A stretch of DNA of 64,000 bases from the NCBI GenBank assembly GCA_000004695.1, contig CM000153.2:3232001-3296000 (forward strand). The letters are read 5' to 3'. The DNA comes from Dictyostelium discoideum (lineage: Eukaryota). The notes beneath the pieces are model-generated. The model ran no database searches. It worked only from the letters and a program-made list of their open reading frames with translations, and had not been told where the DNA came from. Positions 36,957 through 49,308 of this stretch are shown piece after piece (the stretch's first letter is position 1; each line of letters begins with the position of its first letter). The translations under genes and the position numbers were made by a program.

Positions 36957-36999
<43 letters not shown>

Positions 37000-39862: not shown

Positions 39863-40183
39863 TTAATCAAATTGAGTTGTACAATTTATCATTGATTTAA
39901 TTTCAGGTGATAATTTAGATTTATTATATGATGGTGATAAAGATAAATGAATAACAGATGTTGGTATATTATCAATAGATAAATCTTGAGAAAAATCTTT
40001 TGAAAATGTGATTGAAGTTACAGAATTTGGGAATGTATTTGGAAGTATTTTTTGATTGAATGAATTTTTAAATTTTATAGTTGAAATTCCGTATGGAAGT
40101 GCTCCAGCTTCAATAATTGAATTAAATTCTGACCCAAATATTAAAATTCTAAGACAACTTTTTTTATTCTGATCGTCATTAGT

Positions 40184-40220
<37 letters not shown>

Positions 40221-42196
40221 AGATTAAAATTTGATAGTTGCTGATTAAATGAATCTGAAAATTTTAATTCATAAACTGATGATGGTATTGAACTTTTATC
40301 TAATTTTTTATTAAAATTTGAACCTAAATCTAAAAAAGTTAAACTATTTGGTAAAATTCCATTGGGTAGAGGATGGTTATATTCTTTTGATAGTTTTAAT
40401 GTTGTCACACCAAATGGAATAGAACCTTTCAATAAAGGATGATTAAATGTTTGACCAAGTTGTAAATAAGTACAAGTTGAAGGAATAACACCGGGTAATA
40501 ACACTTGATTAAAACATTTACCAAAATCAATTCTTTTCAATGATGAATTTAATGGAAATGAATTTAAATCTAATTCTCTATTAAAATGAAAACCAAATTT
40601 TAAAGATTTTAAAGATTTTAAATTTAAAAAACTCTTTGAAATTAATTGATTAAATTTAAAACCACAATATAATGATTCAAGATTATCAGGTAGTCCATTT
40701 TCTTCAATGATTTGATTAAATGTTGAACCGAATTCAATTAAAGTTACATTTTTAGGGAAAGTATCAACTTTTATTGATTTATTACCATTATTAAATTTTT
40801 GACCAAATATAATTGATTTTAATGATATTGGTAATATTGAAATTAAACCTTCTTCTTTTTTTATATCATTCTTAAATTGAATTAAATATTGATCGAATGA
40901 AATACCAAATTCAATATGTTCAACAGTTTGAGGAATACTATTATAATATAAAGTTTGATTAAATGATTCACCAAATGTAATTGATTTTAATGATAAAGGT
41001 AAAATTGAGGGTAGAATAAGTCGATTAAATGATTTACCAAAACTAATTGAATTTAATGTTATTAATGAACTTAAAATAGTAGAATAATTTAAAGGTTGGT
41101 TCCAATCATCACCAAAAATTAAAACTTGTAATGATGTTGGTAGTGTAGATTTCTCAATTGGATAATTAAATTTATTTGATAAACGTAATATCTTTAATTC
41201 TTGTGGTAGTAAATTTAATGGTATTGGATGATTCCAATCACAACCTAAATCTAATTCTGTTAACGATTCACTTAATGAGTATGGATTTAATGGTTTATTA
41301 AAATTTAAACCCATTTTTAAAGTTAAAAGATTTGGACATAAACATTGTAATTGGGAATCATCAATCGGTTGATTAAAATTTCTACCAAATTGAAGATATT
41401 CTAAATCCTCTGGAAGATTTATTAATTCACTATTAAATTCATTACCAAATATAATCCTTTTTACATTTACTGGCCACTCAATTAAATGTAATGGTTGATT
41501 AAATTTAAAATTGAATATCATTGATGTTAAACTTGTAGGAAATTGGTCACTTTTGAATGGTTCATTAAAAAATGGACCAAATTCAATGGTTTCAATAAAA
41601 GAGTTTCTTAAAACTTTTACACTATGTCCTGATAAAATTTCATTTGAATTTATGAATATCCTTTTAAGAGTGATTGGTATTGAACCAATTTGAAAATTTT
41701 CTAAACCAATATCTGTATTTAATGTTAATTTAGTTAGTGATTCACCTAATGCTCCTTTTTCAACCATTGATTTAAATTTACCACCAATTTGTAATGTTAA
41801 TACTTGTGATGGTATTATACCCTTTATTAATGTACTTGTTGAATCAATAATATAAATAGAGGTTAACCATTCCCTATATTCATAATTTAATAATGATTCA
41901 ACCGTAAATTCTCTCTTTTCATTAAAAACTTTTTCATATAAAACAAGATTTTCTAAAATTGTATATTTTAAATAATTATTTCTCCAAATTTTAAAAAATA
42001 AAAAACTATTATCAATTTCATCTTCTTTATTTAAAAAAAATTTTTTTTTTTTAATTTTATTTCTATTTTTATTAATATTATAATTATTATTATTTGAATT
42101 ATTATTATTATTACTATTAAAACCTGGATTATTTAAAGGAATAAAGGTATTTTTTTCAATTGGTTTTTTTTTATAAATTTTACAAAAAAAAAACAT
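39863..42196 (-). CDS. FNIP-repeat-containing protein, 777 aa, single exon.
   Basis: More than 15 tandem about 22-aa units carry the FNIP signature. Examples are LKFGFHFNRELDLNSFPLNSSLKRIDFGKCFNQVL, LQFGRNFNQPIDDS, LKMGLNFNKPL and FGESFNQTL. There is also an internal poly-Asp tract (DDDDDDDDDDDE) and an N-terminal poly-N region. Confidence 0.8.
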
Positions 42197-42241
42197 TGGT
42201 TTTAAAAAGACCCTTTGGTGATTTGATTTTTTAAAAGATCT

Positions 42242-45200: not shown

Positions 45201-45828
45201 TTATTCAGTTGGATAAATTTCAAAATATTCAATGGCATACTTATGATGAATGATTTATTTTTAAATTAGTACAACTTTTTTTAATCAATGTAAAAATAGT
45301 GAATAATATAATTATTATAACTTACTTTTCTAAGTTCTTCACGTGTAATACATTTGTCATCATCAGAATCCACATCTTCAAACATTGAGTTGGCCAAGAC
45401 TTTAGCTTGAGCTTCATTTGAACCACAAGTAACGAAAAATTGTCTGGCCTCATCCCAAGTAATTTTATTATCTTTATTTGAATCAGCCTATAAAATTTTA
45501 TTTATTTTTTTATTTTTAAAAATATTAAATTTCAATTACTATGTTTTTATGGGAAAGATTAATATTTATATATTTAATATATATATATTACATTAAAAAT
45601 AGTATCAACGAATTTTTTTAAACAATCTTCAGCTTTAATAATATAATCTACAAGTAATGCAGCTTTAACTTCATTAACCGAAAGTTTTCCATCTTTGTCA
45701 TGATCAAATAGTTCAAATAATGAATTGGTTGCCAAAGTTGGGTTTGGGTATTTGCATTTCTTGTACATGTCATTAATTTCTTTCTTTGAAAATTGGTTAT
45801 CACCATTTTTATCAAATGATTTAATCAT
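45201..45828 (-). CDS. EF-hand calcium-binding protein, calmodulin-like. Exons 45828..45592, 45487..45326, 45239..45201.
   Basis: The EF loops are [36 protein letters not shown] and [14 protein letters not shown]. Donors are AAT|GTAATA and AAA|GTAAGT. Acceptors are ttttatag and catcataag. Exon lengths 237 and 162 are in frame. The short last exon, [12 protein letters not shown], is the least certain part. Confidence 0.55.
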
Positions 45829-46322
45829 TTCATTCTTTAATTTAAAAATATAAAATAAATTTTTTTTTTTTTTTTTTTTTTTTTTAAACGGTTCTTATAT
45901 TTTTAAGAACCCACACCAAAAATAAAAAATATTATAATTCCCATTTTTTTTTTTTTTATTTAAATTATTTTTTCCAAATTATATTCATTTTCTAATTTTT
46001 TACCCATTTAAAACAGTTTTCAAATAAGGTAAGAGTGTTTAAACTTTTTTTTTTTTTTATTTTTTTTTTTTTTATTTTTTTTATTTCCTTATATTGATTT
46101 TGTTTTTTTAAATTTAATTATTATTTTTTTTACAAATTGATTTTTTTTATTATTTTATTTATAATTATGTTGAATTTATGATTTTATATAATTTTATAAT
46201 AACAATCTTAACTTCAACACTTTAAATCTAAGCACAAAACCCAAAGTTAGAACTCCAGCTACCTAACAGTTATATATATATTAAAAAAAAAAATAATTAG
46301 AATTTAATTATTAATATAAATA

Positions 46323-46733
46323 TTATATAGATATATTATATTTTTTGATCAAAAAAAAAATAATAATAATAGTAATAATAATAATAATAATAAAATATAT
46401 GATACATACTAAAATCTCTTTTGAACTTATTACTCTTAAAAATACAGATACTAAATATTGAACTCTATTTGAATTTTCTAAATTCTCTTCCACTATTGGT
46501 TTAAATCCTTTGATTTTAAATGCTAATAGTCTACCATCAAAATTTGGTTGTGCAACTGATGATTCCAATACAATATAAGGTATGTAAAATATTGTTGGCT
46601 CATCATTTTTAGTTTCTTCACCATTATAACTAAAAATTTCAAAGTTATCAACACTGATTCCATAAATTCTCAAAAATGCAAGACTTACAAAGTTATCAAC
46701 ACTATTTGTCATTAAAACTGAACTCAGTTGCAA
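46323..46733 (-). CDS. Low-confidence hypothetical ORF. It has a possible GTATGT donor after ..SSKEIL and a short hydrophobic terminal exon around 46264..46199.
   Basis: The 136-codon ORF has a protein-like middle (PTIFYIPYIVLESSVAQPNFDGRLLAFKIKGFKPIVEENLENSNRVQYLVSVFLRV). Its first 35 codons are read across two copies of the 23-bp tandem motif (SVDNFVSL / ISVDNFEIF). The true start is therefore doubtful. Confidence 0.25.
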   Translation of the reverse strand: MQLSSVLMTNSVDNFVSLAFLRIYGISVDNFEIFSYNGEETKNDEPTIFYIPYIVLESSVAQPNFDGRLLAFKIKGFKPIVEENLENSNRVQYLVSVFLRVISSKEILVCIIYFIIIIIITIIIIFFLIKKYNISI

Positions 46734-46908
46734 ATTTCATTTAACCAAAAACATACAAAGTTATCAACACTATTTGTCATTAAAACTGTACTGAGTTTGT
46801 TTCAAATTTCAATTTACAAAAGACATACAAAGTTATCAACACTATTTGCCCAATTTGTAAATTTAAGGGAAAGGGACACACAAAGTTATCAACACTATTT
46901 GTCCTTTG
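46686..46908. repeat. Four tandem copies, with a period of about 53-72 bp, of the conserved 23-bp motif ACAAAGTTATCAACACTATTTG(T/C)C. Its reverse complement, GTTGATAACTT, contains a GATA-type core TGATAA.
   Basis: Motif starts are at 46688, 46756, 46828 and 46881. Copies 1 and 2 share an about 60-bp extended unit (..cattaaaactg(a/t)act(c/g)agtt..). The array overlaps the 5' end of ORF 46323..46733 on the minus strand. Confidence 0.7.
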
Positions 46909-47051
46909 AAAAAAAAATTAATTTCTAAATTAAATAAAATAAAGTTAAAGTTTTCATTTAAAGTTTAAATTTTTTATTTTTTTATTTTTATTTACATTAT
47001 TTATTTATACAATTATATTTTTATTTTTATTTATACAATTTTATTTTTATT

Positions 47052-47333
47052 TTACAAGTAGATAGTTGAATATTCATCGTCATCGTAATAAAGGTCAGAA
47101 TCATATGTTGATTCAACACTTGACAAACTATTTATAGAATCTGATAGAGATTGTATTGTTGTTTTAAATGATAAATTATCCTTTCTTAATAATTCCATTT
47201 CTAATTTTAATTTTTTAATTTCTTGAAAAATTTTATCCTCTTGTTTTTCATTATTTTCTTTCATTGAATCAATTTCTTTATTAATAGAATGGAAATCATT
47301 TTTTAAAGATGTGATTACTTCTTTTAATGACAT
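47052..47333 (-). CDS. Possible small coiled-coil protein of 93 aa. Hypothetical.
   Basis: The ORF from ATG 47333 encodes MSLKEVITSLKNDFHSINKEIDSMKENNEKQEDKIFQEIKKLKLEMELLRKDNLSFKTTIQSLSDSINSLSSVESTYDSDLYYDDDEYSTIYL*. This is a heptad-like, charged and non-repetitive composition. It is flanked by (AAT)n and (ATTT)n repeats. There is no homology call. Confidence 0.3.
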   Translation of the reverse strand: MSLKEVITSLKNDFHSINKEIDSMKENNEKQEDKIFQEIKKLKLEMELLRKDNLSFKTTIQSLSDSINSLSSVESTYDSDLYYDDDEYSTIYL

Positions 47334-47355
47334 TATTATTATTATTATAATTATA

Positions 47356-47454
<99 letters not shown>

Positions 47455-47502
47455 GTATAATTTTTTTTATTTATTTATTTTTATTTATTTATTTATTTTT
47501 TT

Positions 47503-47816: not shown

Positions 47817-49308
47817 TTAAAATTTATCAAGATTTTTAATTCTGCCACCCATTTGAATATCAACAGTGGAACCTTGAGGTCTTAATTCAATGTTATTTGT
47901 ATTTTTTTTTGAATTTCCATTCTTCTTCTTTTTAATTAAAACAATGGCAACAACAATAATTGCAATTAGTGCAAGACCACCTAGAATTGGACCAATGATA
48001 ACACCAATATTTGTTTTCTTTTTATTTTCAGAACCACAATCATCGCCATCATAATCTTCAACACATTGGCATTGACCAACTGTAGTATTACATAAACCAC
48101 CATTAAAACATGAAACTGAACAACTAACACCACTACAATCTATACCTTCATAACCTTGAGTGCATGAACATTCACCAACTGTTGTATTACATGAACCACC
48201 ATTTAAACATTGTGGAACTGTACAATCCTTTGTACCACAATTATCACCATAAAAGTCATTAATACATTGACATTGACCAACTGTTGTATTACATGAACCA
48301 CCATTTAAACATGAAACTGAACAACCAATACCACTACAATCTATACCTTCATAACCTTGAGTGCATGAACATTCACCAACTGTAGTATTACATGAACCAC
48401 CATTTAAACATTGTGGAACTGTACAATCCTTTGTATCACAATCATCACCATAAAAGCCATTTATGCATGAACATTCACCAACTGTTGTATTACATGAACC
48501 ACCATTTAAACATGAAACTGAACAACTAATACCACTGCAATCTACACCTTCATAACCTTGAGGACATGAACATTCACCAACTGTAGTATTACATGAACCA
48601 CTATTTAAACATGAAGCTGAACAACTAATACCACTGCAATCCGTACCTTCATAACCTTGAGCGCACGAACATTCACCAACTGTTGTATTACATGAACCAC
48701 CATTTAAACATTGTGGAACTGTACAATCTTTTAATTCACAATAATCACCATAATGATCATTTATACATTGGCAACCAGTGAGTGGATTACAAGTACCCCC
48801 ATTTAAACATTTTGTATCACAATTTGCATTTGGTTGACCAATGAATTTAATTGATTGTACTTGATTACCATATTTCATTAATATAGTTCTATTAAATAGC
48901 TGAGGTGACAATGAAACTGTTATTTTTGGTAAAACATCATTTGCAATTGATTTACTCTCATCACCAAATAATATTAATTCAATTCTAACTCTTGTATTAT
49001 TATTAAATGTTATTGAATATATTGAACTATCGAAACTAGGATCAATAATAAATTGATCTTCATTTGCTGGATTTTCAATTGTTAATGTAACAATTCTAAT
49101 TGCGCATTGTCCAACTTCTGAATTAATATTATTTTCAAATAATTTATAAATTGAGTTTGACATTGGATTTGGTTGAAATAATTTACTAATTATTGAAATT
49201 GAACCAATCGAAGTTTGACCATATATTGTATAAATATCTAAATATGAACCTGTTACTAATATAGATGCTGTCTGATAGAATAGAATTATTTAAAAGTTAA
49301 TAATAATG

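Follow-up and report, generated by a model that had tools for sequence, protein, structure and literature searches.

Promoter-proximal tandem repeats, or minisatellites, have been described for yeast promoters. Short repeats also occur at rearrangement junctions, where alternative end joining or template switching leaves templated insertions and direct-repeat scars. A third system to be compared here is the clustering of GATA-factor sites. For the Dictyostelium factor GtaC, the published study (PMC4506546) gives only a short "GATA-like" motif from chromatin immunoprecipitation (ChIP), and a preference for GATC in protein-binding microarrays.

We analysed a stretch of 64,000 nucleotides (the window, 64 kb) from chromosome 4 of Dictyostelium discoideum AX4, in which an earlier note had described a four-copy motif array and had assigned it to GATA factors of the GtaC type. 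The array lies at the point where homology to the corresponding locus of D. firmibasis breaks off, and one of its copies abuts a fragment of a RING-finger gene. Our preferred reading, to which we give about an even chance, is that it is a young mini-array, specific to the D. discoideum lineage, that came from a deletion or rearrangement junction, as opposed to a set of GATA sites maintained by selection.

Copies, spacing and composition of the array

The 16-mer CAAAGTTATCAACACT occurs on the plus strand in five exact copies, at 46640, 46688, 46756, 46828 and 46881, all in direct orientation and within 260 bp. In four of the five, the shared sequence extends to 24-30 nt and includes the 24-mer ACAAAGTTATCAACACTATTTG[T/C]C, at 46687-46710, 46755-46778, 46827-46850 (the GCC variant) and 46880-46903, whereas the fifth copy of CAAAGTTATCAACACT is an exact 16-mer at 46640-46655, within the ORF 46323..46733. 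On the minus strand, the core reads (G/A)CAAATAGTGTTGATAACTTTGT(A/G)(A/T)GT. We name the copies in minus-strand order, U4 (46880), U3 (46827), U2 (46755), U1 (46687) and U0 (46640), and the elements of the array are as follows.

46880-46903, minus strand: U4, the most upstream core on this strand, which reads GGACAAATAGTGTTGATAACTTTGTGTGTC and is directly preceded by a T9 run (46909-46917)
46827-46850, minus strand: U3, which reads GGGCAAATAGTGTTGATAACTTTGTATGTC (its plus strand ends GCC) and is the start of a 68-72 bp tandem duplication
46755-46778, minus strand: U2, in which direct reading of the sequence shows the ATG of an 18-codon upstream ORF
46713-46754, minus strand: the spacer from U2 to U1, homologous to the spacer from U3 to U2 and containing five substitutions between assemblies
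46687-46710, minus strand: U1, the edge of which carries the ATG at 46712-46710, the sole in-frame ATG of the ORF and the annotated start of the KAM9942452.1 CDS
46640-46655, minus strand: U0, the 16-mer only, in frame within the ORF (codons SVDNF) and abutting the 5' limit of homology with the D. firmibasis gene

Elsewhere in the 64-kb window, no match to the core was found at three or fewer mismatches; in shuffled sequence, 1.65 such matches were seen on average across the full 64 kb. Among complex 16-mers, three or more occurrences in the window are otherwise found only for the coding repeats of an EGF-repeat gene, at about 48.1-48.7 kb. With five exact copies here and none elsewhere in the 64 kb, the four-copy array described earlier is real and non-random, and it is extended by one copy. 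Regular spacing, which had also been claimed, was not observed, as the start-to-start distances from U4 to U0 are irregular (53, 72, 68 and 48 bp). The claim that the spacers diverge is correct for part of the array. The spacers U3 to U2 and U2 to U1 are homologous to each other (z = 14.6) and are the only such pair, whereas the remaining flanks, those of U4 and U0, aligned no better than shuffles. Consistent with this, TRF reported a repeat at 46680-46848 with a period of 68-72, 2.3-2.4 copies and an 88-89% match, which covers U3, U2 and U1 only, and it is this sub-array only that is a head-to-tail tandem repeat. Outside it, the sequence common to U4 and U3 is some 30 nt long (28/30 identical), and U0 shares 16 nt. 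A visual impression that the flank downstream of U0 resembles the U2 and U3 spacers was discarded, the alignment not being significant. In AX4, about 10 of 46 columns differ between the two homologous spacers, against about three of 60 aligned core positions; selection on a site would likewise leave a core more conserved than the sequence around it.

The array stands out by its base composition. Its GC content is 28.6% (26-39% in the spacers), compared with 4-12% in the sequence on either side and a median of 11.7% in non-coding 196-nt windows, that is, those without long open frames. Spacers old enough to have drifted out of all similarity would be expected to approach the AT-rich level of their surroundings; these have not, which points to youth and not to long-term selection. 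No coding-like reading frame was found in the stretch from U4 to U2.

A second D. discoideum assembly, GCA_054883475.1, can be set against the window. The two differ by 25 substitutions over 21.6 kb, in three places only: one at 36964, nineteen at 42037-42212 and five at 46721-46750. The last five (46721, 46740, 46743, 46748 and 46750) fall in a 30-nt tract of the spacer from U2 to U1, where they alter its resemblance to the neighbouring spacer, and both the copy number and every core are identical between the assemblies. The five clustered changes fit an exchange between units, or an assembly or polishing artefact in a tandem repeat. Separately, the nineteen substitutions at 42037-42212 cluster at the 5' end of a 777-aa ORF (39863-42196), where either conversion associated with a repeat or a discrepancy of assembly could account for them.

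Homology breakpoint and the RING-gene fragment

The genes next to the array all lie on the minus strand, in the order EGF-repeat gene, UPF0521A, array, ORF 46323-46733 and EF-hand gene. The features outside the array that are needed below are these.

47817-49163, minus strand: EGF-repeat gene, upstream of UPF0521A
47052-47333, minus strand: DDB_G0285477 (UPF0521 protein A), 93 aa, an exact match, the next gene upstream of the array, with its stop codon about 150 bp before U4
46381-46597, minus strand: RING-gene fragment, homologous to the 3' end of exon 1, with its splice donor, of a RING-finger gene that D. firmibasis has in intact form (1163 aa)
45574-45834, minus strand: first coding exon of the EF-hand gene (ATG 45828), downstream of the ORF, with its acceptor AG at 45836-45835

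Since the array is located 3' of DDB_G0285477, it cannot be the promoter of that small coiled-coil gene (47052-47333), which was one of two targets considered in the earlier note. The other was the ORF 46323..46733. For this one the position is right, the array being directly 5' of the ORF and overlapping its start; the link to GATA factors or GtaC is the part of the proposal that did not stand.

Some further observations concern the neighbours themselves. A truncated UPF0521A paralogue of 70 aa (DDB_G0275757, 94% identical) is present on chromosome 2. About 40 ATT/TAA triplets at 47334-47465 abut the DDB_G0285477 ATG on the minus strand, and between this run and the AAT-rich intron that belongs to the RING-gene fragment (46348-46404) there are long, imperfect inverted repeats. 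In the EGF-repeat gene, at 48100-48720, 16-mers are repeated five to six times at steps of about 100 bp, as parts of near-identical coding CLNGGSCNTTVGECSC units.

For the comparison with D. firmibasis, a 20-kb locus (L006) was chosen by means of its UPF0521A homologue. Only two segments of the window are homologous to it, in the same order and orientation. One covers the UPF0521 gene (window 47113-47358 versus L006 9978-10221, 83% identity), and the other is the RING-gene fragment (window 46381-46597 versus L006 13610-13827, 85% identity over 218 nt), which at the protein level shows 69% identity (E = 9e-36). The exon in the fragment ends at 46410 and is followed by the donor GTATGT at 46409-46404. 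In the D. firmibasis gene, the RING finger is C-terminal; the window contains neither roughly the first 200 codons of exon 1 nor any later exon. Beyond the two homologous segments, there is no synteny between the genes that flank the loci.

In D. firmibasis the order is UPF0521 gene, B-box gene (497 aa) and RING-finger gene, and the gap between the two homologous pieces is 3.3 kb, with the whole B-box gene inside it. The corresponding gap in D. discoideum is only about 340 bp and consists of about 140 bp at 4-12% GC and then the array. D. discoideum thus lacks the 3.3 kb that run from the end of the UPF0521 gene to the final 70 or so codons of RING-gene exon 1, a loss the polarity of which assumes that the D. 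firmibasis arrangement is ancestral; the lack of synteny in the flanks and the chromosome 2 paralogue DDB_G0275757 make this assumption less secure. Homology resumes between 46597 (nucleotide level) and about 46646 (protein level), immediately 3' of U0, and the next homologous segment begins at 47113. The five cores therefore lie at the homology breakpoint, where a junction repeat would be expected, with U0 at the breakpoint itself. No core-like sequence was found in the 20-kb D. firmibasis locus, even at three mismatches, and the array has no similarity beyond chance to the D. firmibasis sequence upstream of the fragment. A derivation of the array from D. firmibasis coding sequence in that position was accordingly rejected, no alignment having beaten shuffles.

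What the breakpoint means for the ORF is seen at its N-terminus, which had already been called doubtful, and with good reason. The ORF is indeed read through two copies, U1 (46687-46710) and the previously unlisted U0 (46640-46655), and its homology to the D. firmibasis gene covers only residues from about 46597 downward. As judged from this alignment, the first approximately 35 codons are array-derived and lineage-specific, and the N-terminus looks odd because the array supplies its start. Beyond that point, the fragment has kept its frame intact over 62 alignable codons and has kept its donor. Its dN/dS relative to D. firmibasis is 0.36 (62 codons), compared with 0.23 for UPF0521, which suggests that the fragment is under some constraint, although it is too short to be decisive. 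Taken together, the intact frame, the conserved donor and this dN/dS make a functional transcription unit plausible. The codon-usage score of the ORF is gene-like (0.54 per codon); as proof of coding it was set aside, as antisense frames of real genes score equally high and the measure does not discriminate. Pfam gave no match for the ORF. A HMMER search of the ORF against 1.84 billion representative proteins likewise gave 0 matches, an unreliable negative because it missed the protein described next.

In the second assembly, GCA_054883475.1, the annotation holds a 248-aa CDS, KAM9942452.1, that starts at the ATG 46712-46710. Its exon 46712-46410 is spliced from 46409 to 45835, across a 575-nt intron, into the EF-hand gene (L007 10001-11508), and it contains the 101-aa exon of the ORF with 101 identical residues. 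A protein search with this exon found KAM9942452.1 only, and AX4 apparently has no such model. On the strength of this predicted model, the surviving fragment may be spliced to the downstream EF-hand gene, and the fusion of RING fragment and EF-hand protein may be a recent chimeric gene or an over-prediction. The EF-hand gene has on its own 5' side, at 45890-45917 on the minus strand and about 60-90 nt upstream of its ATG, a G-rich GGTGTGGG, which overlaps a perfect palindrome with 8-bp arms, GGTTCTTA-N6-TAAGAACC. We take G/T-rich boxes of the GGTGTGGG type to be GBF-type elements. If this one is of that type, a separate promoter would serve the EF-hand gene, and this would count against the fusion.

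Origin and possible function of the array

The position of the array at the breakpoint, the sharing of the core by U4 and U0 without their flanks, the undecayed spacers and the local instability together suggest a young by-product of rearrangement. During repair of the junction, template switching or templated insertion would have produced several copies of the core (16-30 nt) along with unrelated filler, a step that we infer from position only. No template source for the core was found besides the array itself. U0 may be the ancestral template, the D. firmibasis homology there being too weak to call. The direct repeats would then have promoted replication slippage or unequal exchange, from which the 68-72 bp duplication U3-U2-U1 could have arisen, and the same process may still shuffle the spacers. 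The invariance of the core would reflect youth and recombination within the array, not selection on binding sites. As a result, the array now supplies the fragment with its only in-frame ATG and its first approximately 35 codons. Given the T9 run at 46909-46917, it probably supplies the 5' leader of the surviving fragment as well; transcription in Dictyostelium often begins just after an oligo-dT run.

It is possible, though we find it doubtful, that the core is instead a cis-regulatory element, present in four to five copies and bound by a putative sequence-specific factor (multi-finger or dimeric, given 16-30 invariant bases), which would drive a minus-strand unit that starts in the array, namely the exon fragment, perhaps joined by splicing to the EF-hand gene. 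The invariance of the core amid divergent or unrelated flanks is what such an element would show, the array is directly 5' of the ORF and overlaps its only ATG, the T9 run is immediately upstream of U4, and the fragment to be driven looks constrained, with its intact frame, conserved donor and dN/dS of 0.36. However, the spacing of 53, 72, 68 and 48 bp is without helical phasing, U1 and U0 lie at the start codon or beyond it, the locus in D. firmibasis, the closest available relative, has no such element, and the composition of the spacers favours youth over long-term selection. The motif was not mentioned in the literature that we searched, nor were DDB_G0285477, three guessed identifiers of nearby genes or UPF0521.

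A GATA factor is only a small sub-case of this explanation. All five copies contain TGATAA, a WGATAR hexamer, but it occurs 144 times in the 64 kb on both strands (2.25 per kb, with WGATAR at 4.0 per kb), such that a hexamer inside an invariant block of 24-30 nt is uninformative. The conservation spans 16-30 nt and not the 6-8 nt of a short site, the conserved block being three to four times longer than a GATA site. Together with the irregular spacing and the absence from D. firmibasis, these results leave the GtaC-type assignment of the earlier note unsupported. The part of the PMC4506546 supplements that was searched, with an incomplete target list, has no match to DDB_G0285477 or to five guessed identifiers of nearby, unconfirmed genes, which weighs weakly in the same direction. 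More generally, in the AT-rich genome of AX4 the GATA hexamer is everywhere, and our results give no support for recognising arrays of GATA sites from sequence alone.

An extended form of the cis-element explanation, which we consider rather unlikely, would make the locus a case of recent gene birth with a promoter built from a repair scar. The 24-30 nt core would be a newly evolved composite cis-element for an uncharacterised Dictyostelium factor, and its four- to fivefold reiteration would have made a promoter and start codon de novo, rescued the stranded RING exon fragment and led to its fusion by splicing to the EF-hand gene.

Alternatively, the array could be transcribed and act at the RNA level as a 5' leader, in which U2 opens the 18-codon upstream ORF and U1 the main ORF, and in which the copies serve as alternative splice sites or in translational control. 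The T9 run just upstream of U4 would suit this account as well, and so would the exon-like GC content over the entire array. Each core carries AG, then TGTTGATAACTTT, then GT(A/G)(A/T)GT, like a 3' splice site followed by a 5' splice site; read directly, there are ATGs in U2 and U1, and splice-site-like hexamers flank an invariant 13-16 nt in every copy. A GTAAAA that overlaps the UPF0521A stop codon (47054-47059, minus strand) would, again by direct reading, join in frame to the AG/T acceptors of U1 and U0, but the UPF0521 gene of D. firmibasis has no comparable donor. The implied introns between copies would be only 35-59 nt, which is very short for the Dictyostelium genome, and inclusion of more than one 13-nt micro-exon breaks the frame; on frame and intron length, read directly, we rejected the micro-exon and alternative-acceptor models for the cores. 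RNA folding of the two strands was not better than shuffles (z = -0.48 and +0.71), and no Rfam match at the gathering score was found across the window. We therefore regard an RNA-level role as decidedly unlikely. For the 1 kb around the array, the sole match at E < 10 was to an lncRNA (E = 7.3), which we dismiss as spurious; a search for tRNA genes found none.

That the core belongs to a dispersed repeat, such as a transposon end or a MITE, and is clustered here by chance is very improbable, as all copies have the same orientation within 260 bp with no further copy in the 64-kb window or the 20 kb of D. firmibasis, there are no inverted termini or complex inverted repeats involving the core, the neighbours are UPF0521A, the RING-gene fragment and the EF-hand gene with no transposon ORF nearby, and the five exact 21-mer matches in metagenomes are single-copy, lie in unrelated contexts of 33-44% GC and fit chance. 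One of these matches, on contig Ga0310691_10000010 (L005 7150-7215, 44% GC), lies beside a second AAGTTATCAACA and is unrelated to the array; its TTATCAACA part resembles a bacterial DnaA box.

Returning to the junction-derived mini-array, we hold with moderate confidence that the feature is ordinary in kind, a lineage-specific short tandem array at a rearrangement junction, of which the candidate chimeric gene is the most interesting aspect. The array matters mainly for annotation, where it marks a lineage-specific rearrangement junction and flags a possible chimeric gene. Should the cores be functional, the locus would show, in compact and natural form, how a promoter and a start codon can be put together from the repeated sequence of a junction.

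Comparison with known systems

Measured against the GtaC site clusters (PMC4506546), the array agrees in that every copy has TGATAA (WGATAR) and that it lies 5' of an ORF. It differs in that its invariant block is 16-30 nt, in contrast to the short GATA-like motif, and in that the DNA-binding domain of GtaC prefers GATC on protein-binding microarrays.

As in promoter minisatellites, head-to-tail units of tens of bp stand directly 5' of a start codon; the sub-array has a period of 68-72 bp with 89% identity, and five of the 25 substitutions between assemblies, if they are real, cluster in the repeat. However, there are only 2.3 true tandem units, the outer copies share a core of 16-30 nt with unrelated flanks, the two assemblies do not differ in copy number, and the array extends into coding sequence.

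A further comparison is with chimeric genes in which a duplicated or truncated exon fragment is joined to a neighbouring gene. Here the fusion is a predicted model, and AX4 is apparently without such a protein model. Like those genes, the 62-70 codon piece of RING exon 1 has retained both its reading frame and its donor site, and it is spliced to the EF-hand gene in one annotation (KAM9942452.1).

Junction scars are the system to which we would assign the array. With four to five copies of up to 30 nt over 260 bp it is large for such a scar, and its origin in repair is read from its position. Nevertheless, it is located at the breakpoint of a 3.3-kb loss relative to D. firmibasis, with U0 at the edge of the retained fragment, and, as in junction scars, unrelated filler separates the short copies of a single sequence.
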